A stretch of 64,000 nt of DNA from Eledone cirrhosa. Its lineage: Eukaryota. The stretch lies in the NCBI GenBank assembly GCA_964016885.1, contig OZ024742.1, positions 299,956,001 through 300,020,000 of the forward strand, in the 5' to 3' direction. Position 1 is the first letter of the stretch. Each line of letters begins with the position of its first letter. The notes under the pieces are model-generated. The model was not told the origin of the DNA and did no database searches. It saw nothing but the letters and a program-made list of their open reading frames with translations. Made by a program: the position numbers and the translations under genes. Shown one piece after another: positions 3,395-63,510 of the stretch.

Positions 3395-3440
3395 AACCGT
3401 CTATGCATTTCCGGCTTAACAGGCCTTCGTCAGGACGGTC
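3395..3440 (-). ncRNA. Minimal type I hammerhead ribozyme (mirror copy)
   Basis: Reverse strand reads gaccgtc-CTGACGA-aggc ctgttaa gccg-GAAA-tgca-TA-gacggtt. Confidence 0.85.
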
Positions 3441-3670
3441 TCTCCCACCGCTTGCGACTGCTGGACTAGAAGACAGCTGAGAATATATACTTTTCTCGTC
3501 TGTGTAAATGAGGTGATTAATCTCATTTGCATATTTCTCGTCTTTATTATAAGTTGAGCCAACTTATGCAGCTTCATATGCAAATGAGATTAATCACCTC
3601 ATTTACACAGACGAGAAAATGTATATATTCTCAGCTGTCTTCTAGTCCAGCAGTCGCAAGCGGTGGGAGG

Positions 3671-3716
3671 GACCGTCCTGACGAAGGCCAGTTAAGCCTG
3701 AAATGCATAGACGGTT
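3671..3716 (+). ncRNA. Minimal type I hammerhead ribozyme
   Basis: gaccgtc-CTGACGA-aggc cagttaa gcct-GAAA-tgca-TA-gacggtt: all core nucleotides present, palindromic stem III, AUA cleavage triplet. Confidence 0.88.
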
Positions 3717-3825
3717 GTCCCCCTTGCTTCTGCTGGACATCACCAGAGGGCGTTAGCCCCCCGGTGTTTGCATAGCTACGGCCTCCTAAAACTGTATTTC
3801 TTTGGAGATACAAAATATTTATACA

Positions 3826-4970
3826 TCATTATCTATAAAAGGCAGATTGTTGTGGTTGTGTGTGTGCATGTTCCATTTTTATACATTTGCACAATTTCAA
3901 ACCGATTCGACTCAACGTCTGTAAGAATGTTGTAAATAGTCTAACTTAGGTCACCGACTATTTATTTCATTCACACTCACCCACAATTACGGAAATAATC
4001 GATAAAACTAAATACATGACGCTTAACCCTCTAATACAATCAGATTTCCTCTCTCTACTCCCCTTAAACTTTAAAAGAGGGAGAGGGAGAGGGAGAGAGA
4101 GATAGAACGTTTGTTTTTGAGTGTGGAACGGTCAAACATGTATTTACTTCAATGACAAAGAGAACTTATTACATTTCATACGAAACAACAATTATTCCAA
4201 AGCAACAGATAAATTTATTCAACAACAAAAAAAATAGCGATAAATCTTTTTTAAAACATCTATCAACGAACGCGGAAGAAAGAAGTATCAGTTCATTTAC
4301 TATACACAATAATATCCTTTATGAGATCACTAAACCTGCTAGAAACAGCAGCTAACTCTCACCCATATCACACCACTCCCTACTGTCTTAAATTTAGAAA
4401 ACATATCCTCTATGAGGTCACTAAACCTGCTAGAAACAGCAGCTAACTCTCCCCCATATTCAAAAGCAACAGATAAATTTATTCAACAACAAAAATAGCG
4501 ATAAATCTTTTTTTAAAACATCTATCAACGAACGTGGAAGAAAGAAGTATCAGTTCATTTACAATACACAATAATATCCTCTATGTGGTCACTAAACCAT
4601 ATCACACCACTCCCTCTATGTGGTCACTAAACCATATCACACCACTCCCTACTGTCTTAAATTTAGAAAACACACATTAGACAACCATGCAGAACAACTC
4701 CATCGCAGCTCTGTTGTTCGGCTGGCATCGTCTACGCGCGTGTTGCGCAAGTACTGTGAAACAATAAATTTCAACACTTCTTTGCACAGAGATAATATCC
4801 ATAGGCGAAACTACAATTGTCACTGCTGGCGCAGCTCCTGCTTCGGCAGTCCAGGTCTGCAATTCATTCACCCAGTGCCTGGCAGACAAAAAAGTGCTGC
4901 CATAAAATGGGTGGTGCAACCTAACTTTGGTAACTTACTGACCCCGAGCAACGCCGGGCTTTAATGCTTG
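3826..4970 (+). mobile_element. Non-autonomous Helitron-like element with internal duplications
   Basis: Begins TC after an A. GC hairpin cccgagcaacgccggg (4943-4958) lies 8 nt before a CTTG (degenerate CTAG) end followed by T. Internal direct duplications at ~4193-4404 and ~4457-4671. Confidence 0.6.
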
Positions 4971-8730: not shown

Positions 8731-9202
8731 TATATATATATATATATATATATTTCGTTTCTGAATTTGATTAGCAAGATTCTTTATCTGAAATCGTGTG
8801 TTGAAACCGATATTGTTATACTTTGGGAGGGTCATGTTGCCAGTAAGAAACACACGCACCAGTTGCTTTCACTTCAATTTATTATAATAAATTTATAATA
8901 AATTTATAAATTTCTGGTTGGTTGGTTGGTTCCACAACCAGATAGTTGTTTATATATAGTCATAGTTCTTTCGTCACACACTCTGTGACCTCTTCAGTGA
9001 CTGGGGATTCCTTTCTTTGTTTCTGTGCCTCTCCTTTGTTCTGTCCTACGCCATTTTGTTTCTGTGTGTGTGTTGCGTGCTCAGTCTGCGCATGCGCCAC
9101 ATCCGGGTGTCTGTGTGTGTTTATGTTCATTTATTTATTTGTTTATTTACATGTTACTGGTTGGTTGTTTGTTCTATGTGTGTGTGTGTTTTCATTTTGT
9201 CC

Positions 9203-11320
9203 TTAATTGTAAGTTGTGATGTTGCTGTTCCACTCATATTTTCTATTTAATTTTGGTTGTAATTCTTTTATGTTTATTGCCTCTGTAATTTGTCTAAACA
9301 TTGCGTCTTTTCTGTGTGTAGATTCTATTTTTATTTCTATGTTCTCTAATTTACTCTTGTGTTCTATTTTAGCATGTTGGTAGAGTACAGATGATTCTTT
9401 ATTATCTTGAAGGTCTCGCCAGTGTTCATTTATCCGTTCCCCTACACTACGAGATGTCTCACCTATGTACACTATATTTTTGTCTCTACATTGTCCTTCA
9501 GTACATCTTATGCTACATTTCTAGTTTTACAGTTAATATGGGGGCTTATTTTACAGGTTATACATTTCTTATCTATACATGAGGGTTTTTGAAAAGGGTA
9601 TGTCTTGCTAATAAGTGTTTTTACGGAGGTACCTGGTCTTTCTACTATCTTAATATTGAGTTTATGTTTATTTAGGGCCCTTCTAAATTTGTAAGCTAAT
9701 TCACATCTAGGGGTTGTATCGATGAACATTACACTCTGGTATTTATTGCTATCATACCATGAGTTTATTCTATTAGCCTTGTTCCTAGTTCTTTCTATTC
9801 TATTCCAAAATTTGCTCCTATACAAGGGGCAGGTCCCATTTATGTCATTATTTACCATTTTTTCCCATTTGGTTCTGGCTCCTCTATACACTCTGATTTT
9901 ATCTCTCTGATAGTAGCCAGAGAACTGCATACGGTGGATGAAGTGTTGTATGTGTCTCTCTAGTTCTTCGGGGTTGCACATGCGGGACACATTTCTCATC
10001 ACCCGTACCAAATCCGCAATCAGTATGTTGATTTTGGTATGGTCCGAAACGCCCGAGTTTCGGTGGATCAGATGTTTGGAAGTCATGGGTTTGGCATAAT
10101 GGGAATGGAGGATTTGTTTTTTGTTGTTAATGGTATCTAACCAGAGCTCTGTGTCTAGTACAGGTAATCGATGGTTGGGGTGTTTACTTGGGTAGTCTAT
10201 AGTAACTCTAATTCTCTGGTGGATGGAGTTTGCTATTTGCTGGATGCTTTCCATTGTGTTTTTCTCTAGTTCCTGACTGTTCTCTAGTAGGGGTGTCTTA
10301 ACTACGATGTTTATATCATCTACGTAGCGGGAGTACATTATCAGGGTTAAGGGGTCTTCTAATTGTTCTTTAAGTTTAAGTTTAAGTCTACTGTCCCACG
10401 ATACCATGAATAAGTTAGCTATGTCGCCTGCAATGCTAACACCAATGGCTGCTCCTTCCTCTTGGGCATATGTTTTCCCATTAAATTTGAACATATGTTC
10501 CTTAAGGGTTAGTTTTATGCTGGCCCCTACCGCATGTGCAATCATTTTCTTCAGTTCATCGTGCTTTTCGGGTGTCCGTATGGCTCTGGTCCACCCGTTC
10601 CATCTATCTGTGTGGGTTTTCTTGGCCATTGAGGTAATGGTAGGTGGTCTGCCTCTTGCTGGTCTTGTAGGGCACAGGTTGCTAAGGTCATATGTGTCTA
10701 GGTAATTATTACTATAGGTAAGCTTAAGTAGGAGTTCCAGCTCACTGGTATCAATCCCACGGAACTCAACCTTGCTCTCACTGATCATTTCTACGCATTT
10801 CTCCACAGCAAAATCCACGTCAATAGATGGATACAGGGACACAACATCCATACTGCCTATTATGCAGTTTGTTAGGTCCCCAGATCGGTTACCCACGCCG
10901 ATTCTGCTGAGGAGGTCCTCCGTGCTGTCACATACATCTGGGGACATTGCAATGATGGGGCGTATGATCAGGGAGAGGAAGTAGGACAGTCTGTAGTTAC
11001 TAGCAATGTTAGCTCCACCGACTGGCCGTGTTGGTGGTCCCGCGACAGGGTCACAGCCCATTTTATGGTCTTTTCGAAGCCCATACAACGCCGGCACGTC
11101 ATTGTTCCAGGCCTGGAAGTTGTTGGCAGTCCTTTTGTTGGGCTGCATTATATTCGTCCACATCACCATATGGGCATTGAGGGCTTTTTCTCTATCCTCA
11201 TGCTCCTGTGGTGTTACCTCTCTTGTGTTAGTGATGTGGGGTTGCATTGCCTGGATGTAGTTTGGCAGGCTGTCAACCGACATTCTGCCAGACTTGTCTG
11301 TTGGAAAGCATGCTATCTCT
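9203..11320 (-). pseudogene. PLE polyprotein: reverse transcriptase plus GIY-YIG endonuclease (frameshifted)
   Basis: RT motifs SMDVVSLYPSI, QEEGAAIG, YSRYVDDI and LPVLD; Cys-rich linker; YIGETSRSVGERINEH. A 7-bp deletion near 9510 splits ORFs 9508..11400 and 9203..9472. Confidence 0.92.
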
Positions 11321-11793
11321 AACATAAACTCAATATTAAGATAGTAGAAAGACCAGGTACCTCCGTAAAAACACTTATTAGCAAGACATACCCTTTTCAA
11401 AGACCCTCATGTATAGATAAGAAATGTATAACCTGTAAAATAAGCCCCCATATTAACTGTAAAACTAGCAATGTAGTGTATAGCATAAGATGTACTGAAG
11501 GACAAAGTAGAGACAAAAATATAGTGTACATAGGTGAGACAGCTCGTAGTGTAGGGGAACGGATAAATGAACACTGGCGAGACCTTCAAGATAATAAAGA
11601 ATCATCTGTACTCTACCAACATGCTAAAATAGAACACAAGAGTAAATTAGAGAACATAGAAATAAAAATAGAATCTACACACAGAAAAGACGCAATGTTT
11701 AGACAAATTACAGAGGCAATAAACATAAAAGAATTACAACCAAAATTAAATAGAAAATATGAGTGGAACAGCAACATCACAACTTACAATTAA
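11321..11793 (+). pseudogene. Inverted duplicate of the PLE GIY-YIG endonuclease domain
   Basis: Continuous frame NVVYSIRC...VYIGETARSVGERINEH...LNRKYEW within the inverted arm. Confidence 0.88.
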
Positions 11794-11993
11794 GGACAAA
11801 ATGAAAACACACACACACATAGAACAAACAACCAACCAGTAACATGTAAATAAACAAATAAATAAATGAACATAAACACACACAGACACCCGGATGTGGC
11901 GCATGCGCAAACTGAGCACACAACACACACACAGAAACAAAATGGCGTAGGACAGAACAAAGGAGAGGCACAGAAACAAAGAAAGGAATCCCC

Positions 11994-12038
11994 AGTCACT
12001 GAAGAGGTCACAGAGTGTGTGACGAAAGAACTATGACT
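11994..12038 (+). ncRNA. Hammerhead ribozyme of the PLE pseudo-LTR (mirror at 8958-9002 on minus strand)
   Basis: agtca-CTGAAGA-g gtcac agagtgt gtgac-GAAA-gaac-TA-tgact. It lies on the sense strand downstream of the ORF stop, as expected for PLE pLTRs. Confidence 0.8.
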
Positions 12039-12186
12039 ATATATAAACAACTATCTGGTTGTGGAACCAACCAACCAACCAGAAATTTATAAATTTATAA
12101 ATTTATTATAAATTTATTATAATAAATTGAAGTGAAAGCAACTGGTGCGTGTGTTTCTTACTGGCAACATGACCCTCCCAAAGTAT

Positions 12187-12226
<40 letters not shown>

Positions 12227-16397: not shown

Positions 16398-17232
16398 CAA
16401 ATAAAAAAGAAAACTTTTTTCGCTCTACATGGCTGAATACAATAAGTGTAATCTGAGTTTTTCGAATATTAATAATAATATTCGATTCGTTTGCATTTAT
16501 GGAAACAAGCCTCATTTTTATAGCCATGTCAATAGAATGAACCCCTCATTCTTTCTCTTGTGTTGGCATGTAAAAAGAACCGCAGAGACCAATGTTTATG
16601 GGTATCACCCTTCATCAGTTCAGCCCACCGTTCACCTGCAAACTGTCAGATCCAGTGAAAATACATGCTATTTTCCAAAATATACAGTGACTGATCGGCC
16701 CGATTTGCATATTAGCAGACTGGCTGATCAGTCAGATCCGCATATTAGCAGATCCACTGATCAGCCAGATTTGCATATCAGACTGGGCAGTCAGTTTCCT
16801 GTATACGAGTGATAAATGGCCGACTTTACCAAATTCAAATGAAAAAAAAAGAAAATTTTCGCTCTACATGGCTGAATACAATAAATGTAATCTGAGGTTT
16901 TCGAATATTAATAATAACATTCGATTCGTTTGCAATTATGCAAACATGGCTGATCAGCCAGTCTGCCAATATGCAAATCGGGCCGATCAGTCTGTGTATA
17001 TTTTGGAAAATAGCATATATTTTCACTGGCTCTGACAGTTGGTAGGTGAACGGTGGGATGTACTGATGAAGGGTGATACCCAGAAACATTGGTGTCTGCG
17101 GTTCTGTTTACATGCCAACACAGAAGCGAGAATGAGGGGTTCATTCTACTGAGATGGCTATAAAAATGAGGCTCGTTTGCATATTGAAAACGAATCGAAT
17201 GTTATTATTAATATTCGAAAAACTCAGATTAG
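16398..17232. mobile_element. Tandem plus inverted non-coding element with degenerate hammerheads
   Basis: ~16449-16730 is inverted at ~16950-17230, and 16398-16500 is directly repeated at 16836-16940. CTGATGA-agggtgataccca-GAAA at 17063-17086. Confidence 0.8.
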
Positions 17233-20783: not shown

Positions 20784-21210
20784 ATATATATATATATATA
20801 TAATATATATATATATATATAATATATAATATATATATATAATATATATATATATATATAATATATAATATATATATATAATATATAATATATATATATA
20901 TATATATATAATATATAATATATATATATATATATAATATATATATATAATATATATATATATATAATATATATATATATATAATATATATACATACATA
21001 TATATATATAAATGTATATAATATATATATAAATGTATATATATATATATATAAATGTATATATATATATATTAATATTTGATAAACATTTACATTCTGC
21101 TCAGAAGCGATTCTTAGAGCTGAAATAATTGTAAATGACCCCATTGAGTGTAAACTCTAAGTTATATTATATATATATACATATACATATATATAAATAT
21201 ATATATATAT

Positions 21211-21548
21211 ATGCAAAAGTTCTATTTAAATTGTTGGGATACAACAAGCAAATATTTTTATAACTGACAAGTATTTGGAGTAAATATACGATATTAACAA
21301 ATGGATACTATATTTATAAAACCATATCTATTTTATTATACATATTTCAAGGATACCATGTTAAATTATGGTATGCTTTCATCAGACAAAATACAATATA
21401 TACCAGTTTTATAAATAAATATTGACATACCCTTACAAAATGCAACCGTTACTTTCGGAAGACATATAAAACTGGAATATATTGTAATTTTGTCTGATGA
21501 AAGCATACCATTCTTAGAAGTATTCATTGAACCTTGTTTAACTCTTAA

Positions 21549-31463: not shown

Positions 31464-31498
<35 letters not shown>

Positions 31499-31945
31499 AA
31501 AGTTCTATTTAAATTGTTGGGTTACAACAAGCAAATATTTTTATAACTAATATAAAGCACTCGACAAGTATTTGGAGTAAATATACGATATTAATAAATG
31601 GAAACTATATTTATAAAACCATATTTATTTCCTTATACATATTTCAAGGATACCATGTTAAATTATGGTATGCCTTCATCAGACAAAATAAAATATATAC
31701 CAGTTTTATAAATAAACATTGACGTACCCTTTCAAATGCGACTGTTACTTTTGTGAAGGCATACCATAATTTAACATGGTATCCTTGAAATATGTATAAT
31801 GAAATAAATATGGTTTTATAAATATATATATACATATATATTTAAGAGTTTAAACAATACTTCTAAGAATGAGTTTTACACACATACATGTGTGTGTATG
31901 AATTTGTATGTATGTGCGTGGCGTGTGTATATATATGAATAAGTA

Positions 31946-35446: not shown

Positions 35447-35544
35447 ATATATATTATATTTAAAGGTTAAACAAGGTTCAATGAATACATCAAAGAATGA
35501 GTTTTACAATAGATTGGAAGCACTCAACAGTAAAGGTTTTCCAG

Positions 35545-38500
35545 AGTTATTAATATTAATTCAAAATATTAACAAAATAGATTTTCTTGTGATCAAATAT
35601 ATTTTATTATACATATTTCAGAGGTACTGCGTTAAGTTCAACAGTCGTCCTCATCAGATAAAATAAGATGATGCATGACATACTCTGACATAGTAGAGGG
35701 TTAAGATTCAGCCATAGTAGTGATTAACATATGACAAAACTCAATATTTATACCCTAATATTGAGAACATGAGAAAAATATATAATACAAACAATAGAGA
35801 GTGTGCGTGTAATACAGCTTAAAAAATACATGGCATCAATATAACAGTTAAACCTTTTTTTTTTAAACTACTGAAGAAAGAGAAAAGAAAGGAAAGCATG
35901 GAGGAAGAAACAGCTGATGTGATAATATATTTAGTAGGTGCCTCGAAAAACAAATGAAAGATGATTAAAGAGAGAGAGAGAGACAAAGGGAAGTAATTTA
36001 TGTTCAAGTTTATAGACAATTATCCATATATGCAATATATATCCAAACTTATTTAGTTGACCGTTAATATTCAAAATATTTAATTTAAGTTATTTCAGAG
36101 TAATGAGTAATATTTTAGGTTTTAAAAGTTAATAGGAATCTGTATTAATATTATATTATACTCTCAAGTTTAATTTCTAAAATTCAAATTTTATGAAAAC
36201 AAATTTAAAGGATTTACGAAGCACGATATAATGCTTTTATACCCTCACGAAAGTAATCTTTAGCAAAGTTATTTATAATATTGACAAAAGTTGATATAAT
36301 ATAATTTATAAAATAATTATAGTTATAATTATTAAAGAATTTATGATTAAACAGTTTGAGTGCCTAAAGGATCAACCGGCCTTATAACTAAACTTAAAGA
36401 AGTCTGAATTTTTAATTATATATATGAGTTAATCAAAAAATACACAAGGATTATAATGTCTAAAGTCTTAAGGTGATACCTTTCAAATATATATAACATA
36501 ATACAATAATACAATATAGTAAATAAGTTACTGAAAATATTGTTAAAAAATTATAATTCAAACACCTGTACTGTGAGTAAATCGGGGAAAAGACCCAGAA
36601 CTAAATCAGTTATATGGTTTGCCCCCCCACCCCCCCACCCACCTGCTTCTGTAGCAGTAAGAACACAACTAGCTAATTTATTTTTTAAAGCTTTAGCTAG
36701 TTCCTTCCCTAGTCAACATAAATACCACTCCATATTTAATAGGCACACAATTAAACTTTCTTATTCTACAACTATGAATATGGCCCAAAACATCGCTAAA
36801 GTAAATAGTATAATTCTAAACCAAAATCAACATAATGCTATTAATAATAATGTTAATATAAATAATAATAAATCGAAATGTAATTGTAGAAATAAACCAG
36901 ATTGCCCTCTGCAAAATAATTGTCTGGATAGAAATCTGGTGTATAAATGCACCGTAAAAACTAATAACAACACATACAACTACATAGGGGCAACTTCTTC
37001 GACATTTAAATCGAGATTTGCGAATCACAAATGCTCATTTTCGAATTTTAATAGGAAGTCTTCGACTTCTTTATCACAACTTATATGGTCATTAAAAGAC
37101 AAAAATTTAAAATACTCGATTTTTTGGACGAAGCTTTGTAATAGTAAAATATACACGAACTCGTCTATATCAACTAACTGCAACCTCTGCACAAAGGAGA
37201 CCCTATTAATAATTACTAATTATGAAAACTTAATTAACAAAAAAAGTGAATTATTTTCAAACTGCCCCCATAAAGCTTTATCCACATTCAAAGCCTCGCA
37301 AAAAGTCAGGAAAAAACACTAAACCAACAGGCCTTAATTTTTGAAGTATCCTATCAACTGTTGGGCCTAAAAAGTCATAACAGTTTATAAAACTTTAATA
37401 ATGCTTTTTCTTCTAATCATTTATGATAAAATTAATGTTAGAATGAAGGATCCTCTTTAGATATATAAACATATTATTTGGTAACTTGTTTATTTGAAAA
37501 ATATGCACACCTTAGAATTATTTTAGATATTTATAATTTTGATGCGGTTCTTTATTTATCTGTCTCTGTTTTAAATATATAATTTGGATATTTAAACTTG
37601 TAAATTTACCAATTATAATTGAACTGTAGATCATTCATGCGTTTGCATATTTTACTCATTTTGAGTATGTTTTGGGGACTCAGAAAGTTATATTTGCATT
37701 TATTTATTTTTTATATATATCTAGGTATAAATATAACAAACCATAATAGTCGACACATATTGGTCTCTCTATCCACTGAACTGGAGGTAAAACTACAATT
37801 ATAACATTACTAATAATGATTATAATTATTTATTTATTAAATGTATACCGTTTCATTAATACCTATAGTAATATCTCTATATAGTTGTACCAATATGTTT
37901 ATCTAGTGTAATACCATAGTCGTAGTCACATTTATAAATAATTTAGATACTCAAATGACTCTCTATTGTTATAAGTGTTTGATATTCCCTGGAAGTTCGA
38001 ACTTATATAATGATTATTACTTAGTTTAATATAATTTAATTTAATTCAATTTATTTTAATTAAATTTAGATTACCTTCGGCTTTTTCAAATATTTAGCTC
38101 CTCTTTCTATCACATTCACTAGATATTTTAGACGTATCTTTTGTCTACTATATATTAAAACCCTATTACATTTTATACTATATTTTTCGCAAACAATTCA
38201 TTATTTTTATTTTTTTATTTTTATATTTATTTTGTATCTAGCCCCTATCATTAGGACTCATGTAGTTTTGACTTATATATAGTATATATCAACTAAATGA
38301 AAATAATTGATATAAAACATTAATTTTTTAACAATATATTTTAACAATATATATTTTTTAACAATATGTTCAGTAACTTATTTACTATATTGTATTATTG
38401 TATTATGTTATATATATTTGAAGGTATCACCTTAGACATTATAATCCTTGTGTATATTTTGATTAACTCATATATATAATTAAAAATTCAGACTTCTTTA

Positions 38501-39340
38501 AGTTTAGTTATAAGGCCGGTTGATCCTTTAGGCACTCAAACTGTTTAATCATAAATTCTTTAATAATTATAACTATAATTATTTTATAAATTATATTATA
38601 TCAACTGTTGTCAATATTATAAATAATTTTGCTAAAGATTACCTTCGTGAGGGTATAAAAGCATTATATTGTGTTTCGTAAATCCTTTAAATTTGTTTTC
38701 ATAAAATTTAAATTTTAGAAATTAAACTTGATAGTATAATATAATATTAATATAGATACCTATTAACTTTTAAAACCTAAAATATTACTCATTACTCTGA
38801 AATAACTCAAATTAAATATTTTGAATATTAACGGTCAACTAAATAAGTTTGGATATATATTGCATATATGGATAATTGTCTATAAACTTGAACATAAATT
38901 ACTCCCCTTTGTCTCTCTCTCTCTTTAATCATCTTTCATTTGTTTTTCGAGGCACCTACTAAATATATTATCACATCAGCTGTTTCTTCCTCTATGCTTT
39001 CCTTTCTTTCCTCTTTCTTCAGTAGTTTTTAAAAAAAAGTTTAACTGGTATATTGATGCCATGTATTTTTTAAGCTGTATCACACGCACCCTCTCTATTT
39101 TTTGTATTATATATTTTTCTCATGTTCTCAATATTAGGGTATAAATATTGAGTTCTGTCATATGTTAATCACTACCATTACTGAATCTTAACCATCTACT
39201 ATGTCAGAGTATGTCATGCATCATTTTATTTTATCTGATGAGGACGTACTGTTGAACTTAACTCAGTACCTCTGAAATATGTATAATAAAATATATTTGA
39301 TCACAAGAATATCTATTTTGTTAATATTTTGAATTAATAT
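35545..39340 (+). mobile_element. Penelope-like element, 5'-truncated, with ~1-kb inverted pseudo-LTR
   Basis: Arms ~35549-36553 and ~38353-39340 are reverse complements. GIY-YIG ORF lies between them; hammerhead-like motif at 39224-39291 on the sense strand. Confidence 0.9.
36540..37322 (+). pseudogene. PLE C-terminal linker plus GIY-YIG endonuclease (no RT)
   Basis: VIWFAPP, IFNRHTIKLSYS, CNCRNKPDCPL..C, LVYKC...YIGATSSTFKSRFANH, CNLCTKE, LINKKSELFSNCPH. Confidence 0.9.
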
Positions 39341-39666
39341 ATATATATTATATATACATATATATATATATATATAGTAGAATAATCGAGTATCGAAAAA
39401 TCGGCGCACGAGTTCACGATAAACAAAATTCGATATGAGCGGCAGAGGGTTCAATAATTTAGATAAATCAGAGCTATAACTATCGTTAAAATACCGTCAC
39501 GCATAGAACAAGTCTATAATCAACCATACGACCGAAAAATTGCGATCTGGAAGATTCGGGACACTCAGATAAAAAATCAATAAATCAATAAATCAAATGA
39601 ATGTAAAAAGCATAATATATATAATATAAATATAATATATATAATATATATATAATATATATATAA

Positions 39667-41397
39667 TAACAAATAACGAAACAAAATTAAATTTCGTTTC
39701 GTTTGTAACTCACTTTTGTATGACTGACGCTTAAACAATTAAGTTAAAAATGTACATCCACATATGTATACTGAAATACTATTATGCATATGAATACACA
39801 CACGTATACATATGTAGATGTACCGAGTTTTTCACTGGTCACTTTACTGTGAGTGTCCAGCTATTCTGTATGTAAACACACAGACAAACCGGTTTTTAGA
39901 GTCATACTGGTTTTTGAGGAAACACCTTTCCTCTATTCTCCAGAAAGCCAGGCAAGGAACATTGAACTAGTTTCGATGTTGTTACATCTCATCAGCAATA
40001 TTTACCTATCTTCCGGCCTCTCTAGAGAATCGTAAAAGCACATATCGTTATATGCTTTTTCTATGAAAATTAGTAGTGGGCAGACTAATTTGCATAGAGC
40101 GTGAGTACGTACCGGTTCAACGGAGACGATAAAAACAAATAACGAAACAAAATTAAATTTCGTTTCGTTTGTAACTCACTTTTGTATGACTGACGCTTAA
40201 ACAATTAAGTTAAAAATGTACATCCACATATGTATACTGAAATACTAGTATGCATATGAATACACACACGTATACATATGTAGATGTACCGAGTTTTTCA
40301 CTGGTCACTTTACTGTGAGTGTCCAGCTATTCTGTATGTAAACACACAGACAAACCGGTTTTTAGAGTCATACTGGTTTTTGAGGAAACACCTTTCCTCT
40401 ATTCTCCAGAAAGCCAGGCAAGGAACATTGAACTAGTTTCGATGTTGTTACATCTCATCAGCAATATTTACCTATCTTCCGGCCTCTCTAGAGAATCGTA
40501 AAGAATCGTAATTTAATTTTGTTTCGTTATTTGTTTTTATCGTCTCCGTTGAACCGGTACGTACTCACGCTCTATGCAAATTAGTCTGCCCACTACTAAT
40601 TTTCATAGAAAAAGCATATAACGATATGTGCTTTTACGATTCTCTAGAGAGGCCGGAAGATAGGTAAATATTGCTGATGAGATGTAACAACATCGAAACT
40701 AGTTCAATGTTCCTTGCCTGGCTTTCTGGAGAATAGAGGAAAGGTGTTTCCTCAAAAACCAGTATGACTCTAAAAACCGGTTTGTCTGTGTGTTTACATA
40801 CAGAATAGCTGGACACTCACAGTAAAGTGACCAGTGAAAAACTCGGTACATCTACATATGTATACGTGTGTGTATTCATATGCATACTAGTATTTCAGTA
40901 TACATATGTGGATGTACATTTTTAACTTAATTGTTTAAGCGTCAGTCATACAAAAGTGAGTTACAAACGAAACGAAATTTAATTTTGTTTCGTTATTTGT
41001 TTTTATCGTCTCCGTTGAACCGGTACGTACTCACGCTCTATGCAAATTAGTCTGCCCACTACTAATTTTCATAGAAAAAGCATATAACGATATGTGCTTT
41101 TACGATTCTCTAGAGAGGCCGGAAGATAGGTAAATATTGCTGATGAGATGTAACAACATCGAAACTAGTTCAATGTTCCTTGCCTGGCTTTCTGGAGAAT
41201 AGAGGAAAGGTGTTTCCTCAAAAACCAGTATGACTCTAAAAACCGGTTTGTCTGTGTGTTTACATACAGAATAGCTGGACACTCACAGTAAAGTGACCAG
41301 TGAAAAACTCGGTACATCTACATATGTATACGTGTGTGTATTCATATGCATACTAGTATTTCAGTATACATATGTGGATGTACATTTTTAACTTAAT
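39667..41397. mobile_element. Tandem then inverted array of a 466-bp hammerhead unit (retrozyme-like)
   Basis: About 1.8 copies forward, switch at ~40503-40510, then about 1.9 copies reversed. Identical marker ORFs at 39853 and 40319 (+), 40634 and 41100 (-). Flanked by (TA)n. Confidence 0.93.
40668..40710 (+). ncRNA. Type I hammerhead ribozyme (other copies 41134-41176 +; 39959-40001 -; 40425-40467 -)
   Basis: atattg-CTGATGA-gatgt aaca acatc-GAAA-ctag-TT-caatgt. Confidence 0.9.
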
Positions 41398-41558: not shown

Positions 41559-41863
41559 AAGATAAAATATTAAACAAATAATGAATAAACAATGAAAACA
41601 GTTCCTTATATTAAACAAAAAAAGTTCATTATTTAACGATCGTTTCTAGGATATATATGTGTTAGAATTGGCATGCATATTCAACAGATCTATGTACAAA
41701 ATTATACAAAATTATACAAACTATCAAGATTAAATATACATACCAACACATATATACGCCGTCTTCAGAAATAATCAAAAACGATCGTTAAATAATGAAC
41801 TTTTTTTGTTTAATATAAGGAACTGTTTTCATTGTTTATTCATTATTTGTTTAATATTTTATA
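41559..41863. mobile_element. Small fold-back element with ~85-bp inverted arms
   Basis: 41562-41645 is inverted at 41779-41862; lies between (TA)n tracts. Confidence 0.85.
41628..41775 (-). ncRNA. Hammerhead ribozyme with very long (~115 nt) stem-loop II
   Basis: attattt-CTGAAGA-cggcg tatatatgtgttgg...ctaacacatatata tccta-GAAA-cgatcg-TT-aaataat. Confidence 0.72.
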
Positions 41864-41883
41864 TATATAATATATATATATAT

Positions 41884-43488
41884 ATTGGAATAAATGCTCT
41901 GAAATAGCGATATATATGTGAATATAGACATAGAATATTCGAAAATATTCTGTATGTTTATAATAAACATTTTGAAGACCTAATCGCTATAGAATAGAAT
42001 ACGTCACGTATTACAATTAGATTCTCGATAAAAGCAAGGGAAGTAATCTACGCGTTTCATTCTTGTTAGAAATCATCAGGACTACATATCCAGTGCTTTT
42101 ATCGAGAATGACACAGCTAGAGACTTATAGAATACTTAGCTGTGTACAGGAACTGGTTTGAAAGAGCGGTTGCCGGTCCGGCAGAAATTAGAAATTGGAA
42201 TAAATGCTCTGAAATAGCGATATATATGTGAATATAGACATAGAATATTCGAAAATATTCTGTATGTTTATAATAAACATTTTGAAGACCTAATCGCTAT
42301 AGAATAGAATACGTCATGTATTACAATTAGATTCTCGATAAAAGCAAGGGAAGTAATCTACGCGTTTCATTCTTGTTAGAAATCATCAGGACTACATATC
42401 CAGTGCTTTTATCGAGAATGACACAGCTAGAGACTTATAGAATACTTAGCTGTGTACAGGAACTGGTTTGAAAGAGCGGTTGCCGGTCCGGCAGAAATTA
42501 GAAATTGGAATAAATGCTCTGAAATAGCGATATATATGTGAATATAGACATAGAATATTCGAAAATATTCTGTATGTTTATAATAAACATTTTGAAGACC
42601 TAATCGCTATAGAATAGAATACGTCACGTATTACAATTAGATTCTCGATAAAAGCAAGGGAAGTAATCTACGCGTTTCATTCTTGTTAGAAATCATCAGG
42701 ACTACATATCCAGTGCTTTTATCGAGAATGACACAGCTAGAGACTTATAGAATACTTAGCTGTGTACAGGAACTGGTTTGAAAGAGCGGTTGCCGGTCCG
42801 GCAGAAATTAGAAATTGGAATAAATGCTCTGAAATAGCGATATATATGTGAATATAGACATGTCTATATTCACATATATATCGCTATTTCAGAGCATTTA
42901 TTCCAATTTCTAATTTCTGCCGGACCGGCAACCGCTCTTTCAAACCAGTTCCTGTACACAGCTAAGTATTCTATAAGTCTCTAGCTGTGTCATTCTCGAT
43001 AAAAGCACTGGATATGTAGTCCTGATGATTTCTAACAAGAATGAAACGCGTAGATTACTTCCCTTGCTTTTATCGAGAATCTAATTGTAATACGTGACGT
43101 ATTCTATTCTATAGCGATTAGGTCTTCAAAATGTTTATTATAAACATACAGAATATTTTCGAATATTCTATGTCTATATTCACATATATATCGCTATTTC
43201 AGAGCATTTATTCCAATTTCTAATTTCTGCCGGACCGGCAACCGCTCTTTCAAACCAGTTCCTGTACACAGCTAAGTATTCTATAAGTCTCTAGCTGTGT
43301 CATTCTCGATAAAAGCACTGGATATGTAGTCCTGATGATTTCTAACAAGAATGAAACGCGTAGATTACTTCCCTTGCTTTTATCGAGAATCTAATTGTAA
43401 TACGTGACGTATTCTATTCTATAGCGATTAGGTCTTCAAAATGTTTATTATAAACATACAGAATATTTTCGAATATTCTATGTCTATA

Positions 43489-43492
<4 letters not shown>
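41884..43492. mobile_element. Tandem array of a 310-bp hammerhead unit folded into a spacer-less palindrome
   Basis: Units start at 41885, 42195, 42505 and 42815. Symmetry centre 42860|42861 (atagacatgtctat); about 630-bp mirror arm to 43492; flanked by (TA)n. Confidence 0.93.
42992..43080 (+). ncRNA. Extended type I hammerhead ribozyme (cores 43016-43058 and 43326-43368 +; 42043-42085, 42353-42395, 42663-42705 -)
   Basis: attctcgataaaagca ctggatat gtagtc-CTGATGA-tttc taacaa gaat-GAAA-cgcg-TA-gattac ttccct tgcttttatcgagaat. Confidence 0.9.
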
Positions 43493-43561
<69 letters not shown>

Positions 43562-43717
43562 TAATATATATATAATATATATAATATATATATAATATAT
43601 ATAATATATATATAATATATATATAATATATATATAATATATATATATACATATATATAATATATATATAATATATATATAATATAATATATATATAATA
43701 TATATATAATATATATA

Positions 43718-46700
43718 TCATCATCATCATCATCAGGTTTAGCGTCCGTGTTCCACGCTTGCATGGGTTTGGACGGGGGTTTTCCCACTTGAGGCAAGAG
43801 TGGTTGTCTTGCTCGCATAGGACTGTCTGGCGGGTTTTCTACAGTTGGATGCCCTTCCTAACACCAACCACATTTACAGTGTGGGGCTGGGAGGTTTTTA
43901 CCGTGTTGCCTACACGGCCACATTACAGCGTGGACTGTCTGGCGGGTTTTCTACAGCTGGATGCCCTTCCTAACACCAACCACATTTACAGTGTGGGGCT
44001 GGGAGGTTTTTACCGTGTTGCCTACACGGCCACATTTACAGCGTGGACTGTGTGTTTTTTGTCGTGACACCTACACGATCTCATTTGTTTCGGCCTGGAT
44101 GTTGTGTGACCAACATAACTTTACATTGAAAGGGGCGGTGTGGGTGGGGTGGAGGTGGTGGGACGGGGGTGTGTTTTGATAGAGGTGCCTACTGACTGTA
44201 GTAGGTTTTTACTTTGTATTTAGGTAAGGCGGGTCTTCTCTATTACTGAGTACCGCCAAAGGTCTCGGTCCAGTGACATTGTCTTGGAGAGGTGTAAGCG
44301 TGTGAGGTCGGAATTTATCAGCTCGTCCCATGTTTTTCTGGGTCTGCCTACTCCGTGGCTACCGTCTATCTTTATTGCCCTGCACTTTGTTATACAGCTG
44401 TCGTCTTTCATGCGCATCACGTGACCGTACCAACGTAGCCTTCTCTCGAGTAAACAACATCTGATCCCTCTTATTTCTAATTTTTTCCTTAGTTCGTTTA
44501 TGCTTTGCCGTTCACGTATATTACTATTGCACATCCAGCGGAGCATGCAAGCTTCGTTCCTCTCTAGTCTGCGTATATCCTCTGCACACAATGCCCAGGT
44601 CTCACTGCCATGCAGCATTGCTGTTCGTATGCAGGCATCGTATAACCTGCCTTTCATTTTTATGGAGAACCCTCTAGCGGCTAATAGTGGTATAAGCTCT
44701 CTGAACTTTTTCCATCCAGTTCTGACTCTAGCTACTGTACTTTCAGAGCACCCTCCCCCACTGCTGATTTTCTCACCCAGATAACGGAAGCTGTCCACTA
44801 TTTCTATAGAACCCTCTGCGCAGTTGAAGGAGCTAGTATTTTGTGGGCACTTGCTGCTACTTATTGCACCAGAGCACCGGCCACATGTAAAATCTATGTT
44901 CTTAGTTAGCTTACCTGTGATCCCACTACATCTTTTATGCACCCATACTTTGCATTTGGGACACAAAATGGAGTTTCTACCTACGCCTTTCCTACACACT
45001 GAGCATGGCCATTTCCCCGATGGGACCGCCGCCTTATTTTCTTTCCTACAAACTAGAACTTTAGTCTTAGCCAGGTTAATTTTAAGGCCTTTTGATTCTA
45101 GGCCGTGCTTCCACGTTTGGAATTTCTTCTCTAGTTCGGTCATTGATTCAGCTATGAGCGTTAGATCATCTGCGTATAGGAGTTCCCATGGGCAGCCGGT
45201 CTTGAACTCCTCTGTTATAGCCTGAAGGGCAATAATAAATAGTAGGGGGCTAAGTACAGAGCCCTGATGGACACCAACTTTTACGCTAAACTCTTCACTA
45301 TATTCGTTGTTAATTCTAACCTTACTGACTGTTTCTTTATACATGGCTTGTATAGCTCTCACAAGCCATTCGTCAACACCTAGTTTTCTAAGAGACCACC
45401 AGATAATGGAACGGGGGACTCTGTCGAAGGCTTTCTCCAAGTCGACAAAAGCTAAGTATAGGGGTTTACTTTTAGCTAGGTACTTCTCCTGTAGTTGTCG
45501 TACAATGAAAAGAGCGTCTGTGGTACTTTTGCCTGACACAAACCCGAACTGCATTTCATCTAGATCAATTCTCTCTCTGATTAGTTGCGCTATTACTTTT
45601 TCCGTGACCTTCATGACCTGGTCGATTAATTTAATGCCTCTATAGTTACTCCTATCTAGGGCATCTCCTTTTCCCTTATAGCAGTTAACGATGATGCTGC
45701 TACGCCATTCCTTCGGAACAACCCCATTCTGTACGACTTGGTTAACTATCCGGGTGACCATGGTGTGTCCCACCGAACCAGATGCCTTCAGCATCTCAGC
45801 AACTATTTCCGAAGGCCCAGCCGCCTTACCCGTCTTCATATCTTTGATTGCCTTACTTATTATACTACCTTCAACTAACACTGCTGGTCCCTCTATTGGA
45901 TCGATCTGGGGAGACTGTCTTTCTCCCATTTGTTCTCCTCATTTAGAAGCCTTTCGTAGTGACACTTCCAAGCTACCTTCTTATCAGCGTCGGTGATGGC
46001 AAGTATGCCATCATCGTTAAGTACACACTTCTCCCCGACAATATCACGGTTTTCCTTGACACATTGCCTGGCAATCCTGAACACCTCACGTTTTTGGTCC
46101 TCACGTTGTAGAACATGCTTGAACTTTCTTTCCTCTGCTTCCCTTCTTGCGAAGTACACTTGTCTCCTAGCTTCCCTCCTGGCCACTTGATAGTCTTCTC
46201 TACTTCCCCCATCCCGCCATACTTTCCAAGCCTGCTTTTTGGCCTTAATTGACTCCTCCACCTTACTGTTCCACCACCATGTTACTCTCCTCCTACCTAC
46301 AGGCCTGCTCCAGCCACAGACTTCGTCTGCCGCCGTCAGCAGGTTTGCTCTCAGGAATTCCCACTGTTCCTCTATATTATACGACTCTAATTGCTCTTCC
46401 TTACTGTCGAAAGCGTCAAGTAATTTGCTTTGAAATTTATTTCTGGCTATGGGGTCCTTTAGCTTCCATATTTTTCTCCTGAGGATAGTCCTCTTTCGCT
46501 GTCTAGTACGTCTCGTCCTGACTATGAGGTCGCTAATTATCAGTCTATGTTGGGAGGTGAATTCTTCATGGGGGTGGGATTTAGTGTTAACAACAGACAC
46601 TCTGTCACGTCTTCTGGTAAGGATATAATCTACCTGGCTTGTGTGTTCCCCCGATCTATAGGTGATCAAGTGATTGTCTCGTTTTTTGAAGTTAGTGTTA

Positions 46701-47545
46701 CAGATAGTTAAGTTATTTGCGTCGCAGAATTCCAGGATTCTGGAGCCTTCCTCATTTCTAGTACCGAACCCATAGCCTCCATGGATTCCGTCATAGCCGT
46801 CCAACGTGACCATTTAGGTCGCCTGCAATAACTATATAGTCACTGTCGGTTATTTGGGAGGTAGCGAGCATCAGTGTCTCGTAGAATCTGTCTTTTATAG
46901 CGCGGGGCTGTCCGGATTGGGGTGCGTACGCAGATATTACTGTCACCGTAGTTTTATTGAGGACAAGTCTTATTTTAATTATTCTGTCGTTCACTCTATT
47001 TACGTCTATTATCTTATCTGCCCACTTTTCTGCTACCATGATTCCTACCCCACCCAACCCATTGTCATTTCCCACCCAGAAAAGCTTATAGCATCGCTCT
47101 TTACCCACGATGAATCTAGCCGACCCTCCCCTCCACCTGGTCTCTTGAATACAACAAACATCGACCTACTTACGTTCAAGCATTTCTACAACCTCGTTAG
47201 AGCGACCCTTTAAGGTGCCTACATTCATGGTACCAACTCTGAAGTTTTGGATTGCGTTTGGAGGGTGGGAGCGGTGGGGCGCGGGGGGGGGATGGGGTTA
47301 TGTTAGCCATCCTGGGCCGAAACAAGGAGGAGTGCTTGCATTCTCGTCCACGAGGTGAATTTGGCTTTATCTTTGGCATTGTCGCTGAGCGTCCACATTT
47401 TTCTCTCTTCAACTCTCCAGGATTCCGTAGTCCATCCATCATATCGAAAAGCAACCAGTTAAGCGATAGTATGGGCCTCTGACTTATGATTGGTCCACGT
47501 AATAATGGTGGTGCGTGGGGGCGGGAGGGAGGGCTGATGGGTTGT
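43718..47545 (-). mobile_element. RTE-clade LINE with (GAT)n tail, inserted in (TA)n
   Basis: Tail tcatcatcatc at 43718-43735. The 3' UTR has a ~112-bp tandem duplication (43820-44050) containing ggatgcccttcctaacaccaacc. Confidence 0.9.
44220..47250 (-). pseudogene. RTE polyprotein: APE, RT and PHD-like Cys-rich insert; one nonsense codon and two frameshifts
   Basis: VGTMNVGTL, CIQETRW, AYAPQ, AGDLNGHVG, SQHRL; NYRGIKL, QFGF, DLEKAFD, GVHQGSVLSP, YADD; CSVC..CPKC..HKRC..CGRC. Confidence 0.92.
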
Positions 47546-50465
47546 TAGCGAGAATGTAAGGTTTAAGATAAGATCGCCGTATTTTGGGCATGATTTAACA
47601 ATAAACGAAAATACAAGATTTGTTTTGTTTAAGAAATTACGATAGAGAAAATGCGGTGATAGGGAAAATATGATTTTTAGAGAAAAGATATGATATATAA
47701 TGGTGAAAATATGATATAGTGTGAAATTAGGACATAGAAGTGATTGAATGAATGGGTTCGGATGGAGAGAAGAATCGAGAAAAAAATTGGGCATAATTTA
47801 ACAATAAACGAAAATACAAGATTTGTTTTGTTTAAGAAATTACGATAGAGAAAATGCGGTGATAGGGGAAGTATGATTTTTAGAGAAAAGATATGATATA
47901 TAATGGTGAAAATATGATATAGTGTGAAATTAGGACATAGAAGTGATTGAATGAATGGGTTCGGATGGAGAGAAGAATCGAGAAAAATTTGAACGTTACT
48001 TTATACCGAAGGGAACAGCCATCCCAGAAATAGCGAGTTGGCGATTTTGATTAATTTTGGTAGGGTTTTATCTTATATGTATAGAGAGGGGGGGGCAGGA
48101 ACCAGCATGATGAATGGGTAGGGGGTAGAATATGGGATGGAGCAGAGGTTAAAAGTTTAAATAGGTACTCGAAGATTTGCGTAAAACTTAGCAAGTTTAA
48201 CAAATTATATTTAAAGGAATATATAATAGTGATAGCGAGAATGTAAGGTTTAAGATAAGATCGCCGTATTTTGGGCATGATTTAACAATAAACGAAAATA
48301 CAAGATTTGTTTTGTTTAAGAAATTACGATAGAGAAAATGCGGTGATAGGGAAAATATGATTTTTAGAGAAAAGATATGATATATAATGGTGAAAATATG
48401 ATATAGTGTGAAATCAGGACATAGAAGTGATTGAATGAATGGGTTCGGATGGAGAGAAGAATCGAGAAAAAAATTGGGCATAATTTAACAATAAACGAAA
48501 ATACAAGATTTGTTTTGTTTAAGAAATTACGATAGAGAAAATGCGGTGATAGGGGAAGTATGATTTTTAGAGAAAAGATATGATATATAATGGTGAAAAT
48601 ATGATATAGTGTGAAATTAGGACATAGAAGTGATTGAATGAATGGGTTCGGATGGAGAGAAGAATCGAGAAAGAAATTGGGCATAATTTAACAATAAACG
48701 AAAATACAAGATTTGTTTTGTTTAAGAAATTACGATAGAGAAAATGCGGTGATAGGGAAAATATGATTTTTAGAGAAAAGATATGATATATAATGGTGAA
48801 AATATGATATAGTGTGAAATTAGGACATAGAAGTGATTGAATGAATGGGTTCGGATGGAGAGAAGAATCGAGAAAAAAATTGGGCATAATTTAACAATAA
48901 ACGAAAATACAAGATTTGTTTTGTTTAAGAAATTACGATAGAGAAAATGCGGTGATAGGGGAAGTATGATTTTTAGAGAAAAGATATGATATATAATGGT
49001 GAAAATATGATATAGTGTGAAATTAGGACATAGAAGTGATTGAATGAATGGGTTCGGATGGAGAGAAGAATCGAGAAAAATTTGAACGTTACTTTATACC
49101 GAAGGGAACAGCCATCCCAGAAATAGCGAGTTGGCGATTTTGATTAATTTTGGTAGGGTTTTATCTTATATGTATAGAGAGGGAGGGGGGGGGGCAGGAA
49201 CCAGCATGATGAATGGGTAGGGGGTAGAATATGGGATGGAGCAGAGGTTAAAAGTTTAAATAGGTACTCGAAGATTTGCGTAAAACTTAGCAAGTTTAAC
49301 AAATTATATTTAAAGGAATATATAATAGTGATAGCGAGAATGTAAGGTTTAAGATAAGATCGCCGTATTTTGGGCATGATTTAACAATAAACGAAAATAC
49401 AAGATTTGTTTTGTTTAAGAAATTACGATAGAGAAAATGCGGTGATAGGGAAAATATGATTTTTAGAGAAAAGATATGATATATAATGGTGAAAATATGA
49501 TATAGTGTGAAATTAGGACATAGAAGTGATTGAATGAATGGGTTCGGATGGAGAGAAGAATCGAGAAAAAAATTGGGCATAATTTAACAATAAACGAAAA
49601 TACAAGATTTGTTTTGTTTAAGAAATTACGATAGAGAAAATGCGGTGATAGGGGAAGTATGATTTTTAGAGAAAAGATATGATATATAATGGTGAAAATA
49701 TGATATAGTGTGAAATTAGGACATAGAAGTGATTGAATGAATGGGTTCGGATGGAGAGAAGAATCGAGAAAGAAATTGGGCATAATTTAACAATAAACGA
49801 AAATACAAGATTTGTTTTGTTTAAGAAATTACGATAGAGAAAATGCGGTGATAGGGGAAGTATGATTTTTAGAGAAAAGATATGATATATAATGGTGAAA
49901 ATATGATATAGTGTGAAATTAGGACATAGAAGTGATTGAATGAATGGGTTCGGATGGAGAGAAGAATCGAGAAAAATTTGAACGTTACTTTATTCCGAAG
50001 GGAACAGCCATCCCAGAAATAGCGAGTTGGCGATTTTGATTAATTTTGGTAGGGTTTTATCTTATATGTATAGAGAGGGAGGGGGGGGGGGGGGCAGGAA
50101 CCAGCATGATGAATGGGTAGGGGGTAGAATATGGGATGGAGCAGAGGTTAAAAGTTTAAATAGGTACTCGAAGATTTGCGTAAAACTTAGCAAGTTTAAC
50201 AAATTATATTTAAAGGAATATATAATAGTGATAGCGAGAATGTAAGGTTTAAGATAAGATCGCCGTATTTTGGGCATGATTTAACAATAAACGAAAATAC
50301 AAGATTTGTTTTGTTTAAGAAATTACGATAGAGAAAATGCGGTGATAGGGAAAATATGATTTTTAGAGAAAAGATATGATATATAATGGTGAAAATATGA
50401 TATAGTGTGAAATTAGGACATAGAAGTGATTGAATGAATGGGTTCGGATGGAGAGAAGAATCGAG

Positions 50466-50473
<8 letters not shown>
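47546..50473. repeat. Higher-order tandem array: ten 203-bp monomers (A) and three ~285-295-bp spacers (B), pattern A2-B-A4-B-A3-B-A1
   Basis: A starts at 47585, 47788, 48272, 48475, 48678, 48881, 49371, 49574, 49777, 50271. B starts at ~47988, 49081, 49977. Confidence 0.95.
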
Positions 50474-63116: not shown

Positions 63117-63300
63117 AGTTTATACCGGGTTCAATCGGGGGTAACCACAGTAAGTAAGGTACTCAATACATAGCAGAGTATAAATATTTAATATAGAAAT
63201 TACTTCTACAGGACTAGAACTGTTTCATTCGGAAGAAATCATCAGGGCTTCCTGATTATTTCTCCCGAATGAAACAATTCTAGTCCTCTAGAAGCCAGTT
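63117..63300. mobile_element. Small fold-back element with back-to-back degenerate hammerhead cores
   Basis: Arms 63203-63246 and 63251-63294 each read CTGAT(G/T)A-tttc..gaat-GAAA-ca(g/a)ttc-TA; lies between microsatellites. Confidence 0.65.
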
Positions 63301-63307
63301 ATATATA

Positions 63308-63357
<50 letters not shown>

Positions 63358-63510
63358 TGTAAGTATAGTATATTTGGCAATATAATGTATGTTTAATTAA
63401 AAACATTTAGAAGACCATTCGAAATCAGTTTTAAAGTAGTGACTATATCACTTACTTATTTTCAGCGAAATGTATACATCGCTATTTCAGAGCACCAATA
63501 CTAATATATA

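Follow-up and report, generated by a model that had tools for sequence, protein, structure and literature searches.

The window analysed here is a 64,000-nucleotide stretch of the Eledone cirrhosa genome, and at positions 41884–43492 it contains 310-bp, ribozyme-bearing units that face each other across a centre without any spacer. Perfect palindromes are unstable DNA, and fold-back chimeras give rise to zero-spacer palindromes; a first-pass annotation had read the structure as a fold-back that was either very young or an artefact. How, then, did this palindrome arise, and does it reflect the way in which its family of repeats is normally inserted?

Architecture of the palindromic locus

Tandem Repeats Finder reported a 310-bp period at 41884–42861 (3.2 copies) and, inverted, at 42860–43501 (2.1 copies). 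The left arm comprises 3.15 units (978 bp; 41884–42861), with the ribozyme sense on the minus strand, and the right arm 2.04 units (42860–43492), with the ribozyme sense on the plus strand. The arms pair with each other over 1,264 bp (42229–43492), and no spacer separates them at 42860|42861. Their sole mismatch, T at 42317 against G at 43404, is a CpG-type change private to a single unit (42317) and likely arose after insertion. The tandem 310-bp units meeting head-to-head without a spacer and the single arm mismatch that the first-pass annotation had described are thus confirmed, as is a unit size typical of animal retrozymes, 310 bp falling within their 150–450 bp range.

Unit positions 1–310 were numbered in RNA sense from the predicted cleavage site. 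On this scale, the left arm ends outwardly at position 165 (tail-plus) and carries a 35-nt "tail" (unit 131–165; 41884–41918, minus strand) that is present at the left outer end only. The right arm ends at position 130 (tail-minus), its match extending to position 139 through likeness to TA. The two outer ends are therefore unequal by 35 nt, and both adjoin the (TA)n target, which occupies 41861–41883 on the left and 43493–43718 on the right. At the centre, the arms join at unit position 118 on either side (118/118) with a self-complementary 2-nt overlap (AT; 42860–42861), at the foot of a predicted UUCG hairpin. The unit has a GC content of about 33%; no frame of at least 120 aa lies inside the arms, and two low-complexity frames enter from the TA flank. 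Bounded by two predicted cleavage sites, a 310-nt monomer (43053–43362, plus strand) would circularise, and its circular fold is predicted at -67.8 kcal/mol (z = -4.4 against 100 shuffles).

The hammerhead ribozyme of the 310-bp unit

The locus holds five hammerheads, as the first-pass annotation had counted, and all are of type I. Three lie on the minus strand, with cores at 42079, 42389 and 42699 (motifs 42021–42109, including the distal stem, 42331–42419 and 42641–42729; cleavage predicted after 42049, 42359 and 42669), and two on the plus strand, with cores at 43022 and 43332 (motifs 42992–43080 and 43302–43390; cleavage predicted after 43052 and 43362), so that the ribozyme-sense 3' ends face outwards. 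Helix I of 6 bp and a distal stem of 16 bp are paired at every position, in agreement with the earlier description; the "internal loop" that accompanied them there contains a 3-bp helix in the predicted fold. Helix II has 4 bp with a U-U mismatch at its base, replaced by A-U in the 287A haplotype, and helix III is a single A-U pair capped by the palindromic loop CGCG. The predicted fold of the motif has a z-score of -5.6 against 200 shuffles. No Rfam family matched at its gathering score, the best being a weak hit to Hammerhead_HH9 at 43007–43072 (19.2 bits against a gathering score of 52; E = 0.028).

The motif matches what PMC4209133 describes as the canonical type I hammerhead of metazoans, with a helix I of 6 bp, a helix II of 4 bp and a helix III of 1–2 bp with a palindromic loop; of the axolotl motifs in PMC7229834, it shares helix III with HHR_Amex1 and the U-U base of helix II with HHR_Amex2. 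It departs from the minimal PLE (Penelope-like) type of PMC4209133 (helix II of 7–8 bp, helix I of 4–5 bp, poor loop 1) in having a 6-bp helix I with an extended stem and a 4-bp helix II, and from the fast monomeric class (stable helix III, G10.1-C11.1 pair, conserved loop-loop contacts) in its 1–2 bp helix III and U-U helix II base. A helix III of 1–2 bp with a palindromic loop hinders cleavage of the monomer, the ribozyme being active as a dimer (PMC4209133); as monomers, the axolotl motif with this helix III cleaves 6% in 1 h and the one with the U-U helix II base 22% (PMC7229834). Judged by its sequence, the helix III of the 310-bp unit appears to be of this weak, dimer-dependent type. The annotation of a "fast" hammerhead is thus unsupported. 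Its contrast between this ribozyme and those of PLEs was correct in that the hammerhead is not of the minimal PLE type, but misleading in that the insertion bears a PLE signature.

Dispersed copies share two fixed outer ends

Counted by exact sequence patterns, the 36-nt core occurs 4,495 times in the 3.0-Gb genome (reversed control, 0), and the first 100 core matches listed fall into minus-then-plus arrays. Exact junction patterns identified 1,078 tail-plus and 1,255 tail-minus array ends genome-wide. Flanks of the arrays are unrelated between loci, indicating that the copies are dispersed and mobile. Among the first ten other loci, each two-armed one ended near unit 130–139 on one arm and 165–170 on the other. 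The first 218 Mb of contig C1 contained 184 listed ends, with 53 outward-facing pairs within 20 kb, and every one of these pairs consisted of one tail-plus and one tail-minus end (53/53; like-ended pairs, 0).

The sample from C1 comprised 52 of the 53 pairs, with one pair left out (>10 kb), together with 32 of 78 unpaired ends; the loci analysed all come from one contig, most selected through TA-flanked ends. Seventy-nine of 91 stretches were clean two-armed loci. Seven stretches were one-armed, and the other five that were left out had extra inversions (L041), a join identical to that of L052 (L101), a far end beyond the stretch (L098), a run of N at the end (L033) or a second arm of about 10 nt (L093). 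All 79 clean loci combined a tail-plus with a tail-minus end: the former stopped exactly at unit 165 in 61 loci, and the latter at unit 130 or 139 in 66. The longer arm was the tail-plus arm in 41/79 loci, arm lengths were uncorrelated (rho 0.18, p = 0.11), and arms starting at the fixed sites reached 27 units. The low load of single-unit variants, on average 0.137 per unit, marks the copies as very young. Arm ends seemed to cluster at the cleavage site, but this proved to be a filter artefact, the true ends lying at 295–310. In the long arm of L035/L036, two variants repeat seven units apart, which suggests that seven units were later duplicated or that the template was a 7-mer.

Flanks were AT-rich or (TA)n in 150 of 158 cases, a share inflated by the finding of most loci via a TA-flanked end, and unit site 130–139 can pair with TA repeats. 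One copy inserted outside (TA)n, L034, has a 14-bp target duplication, as staggered double-strand priming would give. Retrozymes are expected to have target duplications longer than 4 bp; overall, duplications were found at 10/76 loci, compared to 6.2 ± 2.1 in shuffled flanks, which is not above chance in flanks as repetitive as these.

Inner joins are variable and the palindrome is incidental

We mapped the joins with each locus's own unit sequence. Inner break points are distributed over the whole unit: in the 79 loci, the arms overlap by at least 1 nt in 47, meet bluntly in 10 and are separated by inserted bases in 22. Overlaps of at least 2 nt account for 35 of the 57 insert-free joins as compared to 18% by chance (p = 5e-13), and a 2-nt overlap is the commonest type of join (18/79). 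Joins at the predicted cleavage site show no excess over chance. The break points of the two arms are independent of each other, with loops of at most 30 nt in 7/79 loci versus 7.9 expected (KS p = 0.93). Each arm seems to have been primed on its own, from its outer end, contrary to the fold-back that had been annotated.

Symmetric joins were found at the window locus and at L084 (192/192), the latter being 1 of 78 other loci versus approximately 0.25 expected; both together (2/79 versus 0.25) give p = 0.027, with the window locus itself chosen for its symmetry. The exact 118/118 join occurs once in the genome. At the window locus, both cDNAs may plausibly have been halted at the foot of the UUCG hairpin. 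A head-to-head arrangement is what insertion normally produces in this family, and the perfect palindrome is incidental. Of the two alternatives offered by the first-pass annotation, the young insertion stands; an artefact is unlikely, because the two flanks do not mirror each other and the short arm ends at a site characteristic of the family. The join varies between loci, and a centre without a spacer is one of its rare forms. L041 contains additional inversions at its join. Between the arms of L037 (2299–2570) lies a 272-bp foreign repeat, 96–98% like copies clustered on contig C25; we considered this insert as a partner mRNA and rejected it because it belongs to that other repeat.

Haplotypes within and between arms

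Variants were counted in 77 loci, two of the 79 being too short. A total of 104 variants were fixed in every unit of both arms and none in one arm only; of the remainder, 13 were fixed in all covering units, 1 was nearly fixed, 12 were partial and 101 were present in a single unit. Fourteen variants were confined to one locus and fixed there in both arms. The loci represent 30 haplotypes, with a 0.13 chance of two random loci matching, and two independent RNAs would therefore usually disagree. Only one mirrored single-unit variant was found (L057) versus approximately 30 expected under linear-multimer templates, an expectation that presumes an average mutation load in the source arrays and would be lowered by very young sources. 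Within 5 nt of the cleavage site there were no single-unit variants versus 3.1 expected, indicating that passage across the junction is clean. This haplotype pattern looks like that of a monomer bottleneck, in which one unit is copied repeatedly, as PMC7229834 and PMC4209133 have proposed without insertion data. These variants suggest that each insertion derives from one RNA, probably a circle. Arm identity could be raised by gene conversion or assembly polishing.

A few loci depart from a single repeated unit. In L066, whose arms have 3 and 18 units, the haplotype order counted inwards from either outer end is A, A, B, where a centre-made copy would give B, B, B; L066 and L057 each call for a template that was a linear multimer, or else for a simultaneous template switch. 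In L103, the haplotype changes after four units in one arm and is unchanged in the other, which suggests two templates or conversion.

The same variants bear on the ribozyme. Propagated variants at its paired positions preserve pairing in 6/6 cases and single-unit variants in 3/14 (p = 0.002), and the 11 invariant core positions are changed by 0/31 propagated versus 4/97 single-unit variants. Ribozyme pairing is thus under selection, and since propagated variants, unlike single-unit ones, spare the core and the pairs, the fold of the ribozyme matters for spread.

Coding PLEs and neighbouring repeats

The 310-bp element lacks an RT plus GIY-YIG ORF and is not an autonomous PLE, though its insertion is PLE-like. 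A coding PLE lies in the window at 8732–12194, with an RT frame of 632 aa (minus strand), a GIY-YIG domain, an inverted 3' copy and a tail of approximately 58 nt at one end. A second PLE remnant at about 35460–39340 has inverted 1-kb arms, hammerheads at 35657 (minus) and 39235 (plus) and a longer left end. At 39663–41397, a 466-bp unit with four hammerheads (helix III loop CUAG) is arranged head-to-head in (TA)n with one end longer; this repeat has 2,178 exact matches genome-wide, and its arrays reach 30 units or more. The genome contains approximately 10,600 GIY-YIG candidates, some with frames of 844–1,096 aa, and the coding PLEs of window and genome share the head-to-head layout. An autonomous PLE with ends matching the 310-bp unit was found at 0/50 GIY-YIG loci, nowhere in the window and nowhere upstream in 30 sibling loci; likewise, neither the window nor 50 of the approximately 10,600 GIY-YIG candidate loci, a small sample, yielded a pLTR homologue of the unit.

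Other repeats were observed alongside these. The coding PLE L208 (1260–4525) is palindromic over 3.27 kb (99.7%), its loop being short and its two ends alike, and is a fold-back product or an assembly artefact. An older sibling retrozyme (window 63340–63506; L162, 1155–1812) has a unit of approximately 320 bp that is 70–80% like the 310-bp unit, the same layout and a homologous tail, whose motif has 2,888 exact matches. In L143 this sibling lies at the tail junction of a pLTR resembling that of the window PLE, an arrangement that possibly hints at the sibling's mobiliser; PLE fragments beside the sibling copies L160 and L162 were rejected as a partner, being separate insertions in shared TA tracts. 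A third hammerhead family (window 63130–63310; L220) has 27,663 exact matches, often tiny head-to-head copies, and a tail of approximately 70 nt on one side; L220 is likewise a zero-spacer palindrome. We rejected this family as a relative of the 310-bp unit, as only the core is in common. Further inverted elements, mostly with hammerhead-like cores, lie at 3274–3837, 16449–17231, 21184–21511, 31467–31826 and 41562–41862, and the window is crowded with head-to-head insertions nested in TA tracts. At 47543–50472, a purine-rich 203-bp unit is tandemly repeated, with spacers in between; the array is strongly GC-skewed, and a scan found no hammerhead in it.

The unit in public sequencing runs

Of the sampled words of the unit, 72–100% are present in each of twenty public runs, which come from 16 studies and carry the labels of 17 organisms. 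Run X3, from another study, gave 551 contigs at very high depth that exit the unit into TA repeats at position 139 (9 contigs) and at 170, and contigs of run X1 exit into TA repeats at 165. Runs X2 and X4 each gave one looped contig with zero differing letters at a depth of 10–12; tandem DNA would produce the looped 340-nt contigs of the runs equally. There was no RNA run containing the unit among the matches listed, and no exact core in metagenome or viral contigs. Close kinship, horizontal transfer or cross-contamination would each account for a near-identical unit across labelled organisms; the RNA circle might move between species.

Discussion

We consider it fairly likely that a Penelope-like RT/GIY-YIG protein acts in trans on the 310-bp element, an ORF-less non-LTR retrozyme, and inserts it by twin target priming on one RNA; that the mobiliser is PLE-type machinery is what we infer from the insertions. 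Array transcripts would self-cleave, probably via hammerhead dimers, and the 310-nt monomer would be ligated to a circle. A PLE protein, predicted to be a dimer, would make a staggered cut of both (TA)n strands, the first 3'-OH priming at unit 130–139 and the second at 165–170. Both RTs would circle the same RNA, displacing strands, with independent numbers of turns, and the cDNA 3' ends would then anneal via 0–6 nt and mutually prime the second strands. About one-tenth of copies would come from uncleaved linear multimers. At the window locus, both cDNAs would have stopped by chance at unit 118, leaving a perfect palindrome.

A related process operates in LINE-1 twin priming, in which a single RNA is primed from the two sides of a staggered break and the cDNAs join via microhomology. 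In LINE-1, the internal position of the second primer varies and inversion is confined to the 5' part; the 310-bp family, by contrast, has two fixed priming sites at a distance of 35 nt and arms that are both multimeric.

Several features of the family are shared with PLE insertions as described in PMC8557442 and PMC3846280, namely an inverted 5'-truncated copy placed head-to-head, a one-ended tail of 30–40 bp, (TA)n targets and type I hammerheads; the target duplications of PLEs are near 10 bp. The tail is optional in those PLEs, whereas exactly one is present per two-armed insertion here (79/79). Unlike PLEs, the 310-bp element has no RT or GIY-YIG ORF and no pLTR homologue was found in the loci searched, and its joins lack the short-loop palindromes that underlie the PLE self-priming model. 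The Poseidon PLE of Anolis provides a parallel in vitro (PMC11167929): the purified protein, predicted to dimerise, cuts and extends both strands of an AT-rich target, and two internal RT start sites downstream of the hammerhead cut delimit the tail. In the available part of that paper, the sites are not assigned to the sides of the break and the cDNAs are not joined. Its template is linear and used unprocessed, ribozyme cleavage not being needed in vitro, and its starts are not homologous to the target, whereas site 130–139 here resembles TA repeats.

The unit is also like the non-LTR retrozymes of animals (PMC7229834, 10.64898/2026.07.22.740005), which are ORF-less 150–450 bp tandem repeats of low GC with a canonical type I hammerhead per unit and a self-paired predicted circle. 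Retrozymes are described there as tandem arrays only, and the word "inverted" is absent from the available text of PMC7229834, whereas here two opposed arrays have fixed starts. Circles are proven for the published retrozymes; the present family is known here from DNA. Mobilisation by PLEs was argued in these papers from co-occurrence and pLTR phylogeny. In the 310-bp family, each insertion consists of two opposed arrays with fixed start sites, and the footprint of the mobiliser is thus present in the DNA. Non-LTR retrozymes, their circles and a likely PLE link had therefore already been published (PMC7229834, 10.64898/2026.07.22.740005), as had PLE inversions and tails (PMC8557442, PMC3846280); two-armed retrozyme insertions, a strict one-tail rule and PLE twin priming were undescribed in the literature searched, which was mostly without subscription papers.

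An alternative template for PLE twin priming is an uncleaved linear multimer from an existing array, with the ribozyme minor for mobility and array uniformity maintained by gene conversion or unequal exchange. This would explain why L066 and L057 are in register from their outer ends, and it accords with the slow cleavage predicted by the weak helix III, with the lack of effect of hammerhead mutants on anole PLE insertion in vitro (PMC11167929) and with the unequal crossover proposed for local amplification (10.64898/2026.07.22.740005). We nevertheless regard it as unlikely, given that variants occur in a single unit (101) or in all (104) and seldom in some (12), that one mirrored single was seen where approximately 30 were expected, that arms of up to 27 units begin at fixed priming sites and that propagated variants conserve ribozyme pairing. 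The published self-priming account, by which PMC3846280 explains head-to-head Penelope copies and PMC8557442 the tail, would have one cDNA or antisense RNA form a hairpin centrally and copy itself, with endonuclease resolution setting the ends. The findings argue against it for the 310-bp family, where short loops are not in excess (7/79 versus 7.9), the register of L066 runs from the outer ends and not from the centre, and the longer arm can bear either end type. One haplotype per locus, the two perfectly symmetric loci (2/79 versus 0.25, p = 0.027, one of them preselected), the extra inversions at the L041 join and the palindromic coding PLE L208, with its 3.27-kb length, short loop and like ends, are what self-priming accounts for, and on balance we hold it improbable here. 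Given this appearance of L208, fold-back may take place in families other than the 310-bp one.

Two further readings concern the window locus itself. The insertion may be real and its join symmetrised later, by cruciform resolution in the animal, the library or the assembly; the instability of perfect palindromes would favour this, but a 2-nt overlap like that at 42860–42861 is the commonest join (18/79) and symmetry at other loci is near chance (1/78), making later symmetrisation very unlikely. That the entire palindrome is a chimeric-read or assembly artefact is more improbable still: fold-back chimeras do produce zero-spacer palindromes, but the flanks here are not mirrored, and the right arm ends at the tail-minus site, which would otherwise require a second chance event. 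Moreover, 78 other loci have the identical layout with different joins, and the end sites recur in contigs of an independent study. Twin priming on a single RNA remains our preferred reading of the locus.

The origin of tandem and inverted PLE copies and of the one-sided tail has been called open (PMC8557442, PMC3846280, PMC11167929), and PMC7229834 and 10.64898/2026.07.22.740005 offer hypotheses as to what mobilises animal retrozymes and what serves as their template. With more than 1,000 young, near-identical insertion products that carry haplotype markers, these models can be separated from DNA alone, and the 310-bp family is an unusually clean record of Penelope-type insertion of ribozyme RNA. 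For the PLE assay already established in vitro, it provides a substrate of 310 nt on which two start sites are mapped. It is quite possible, and we propose it tentatively, that PLE proteins in general perform twin-primed rolling-circle reverse transcription as a dimer, with starts 35 nt apart on one ribozyme-made circle. If so, one mechanism would explain both the tandem arrays of retrozymes and the inverted copy and one-sided tail of PLEs, replacing the self-priming model; a eukaryotic RT would make concatemers from a ribozyme-derived circle, and a large genome would receive a steady supply of kilobase inverted repeats.
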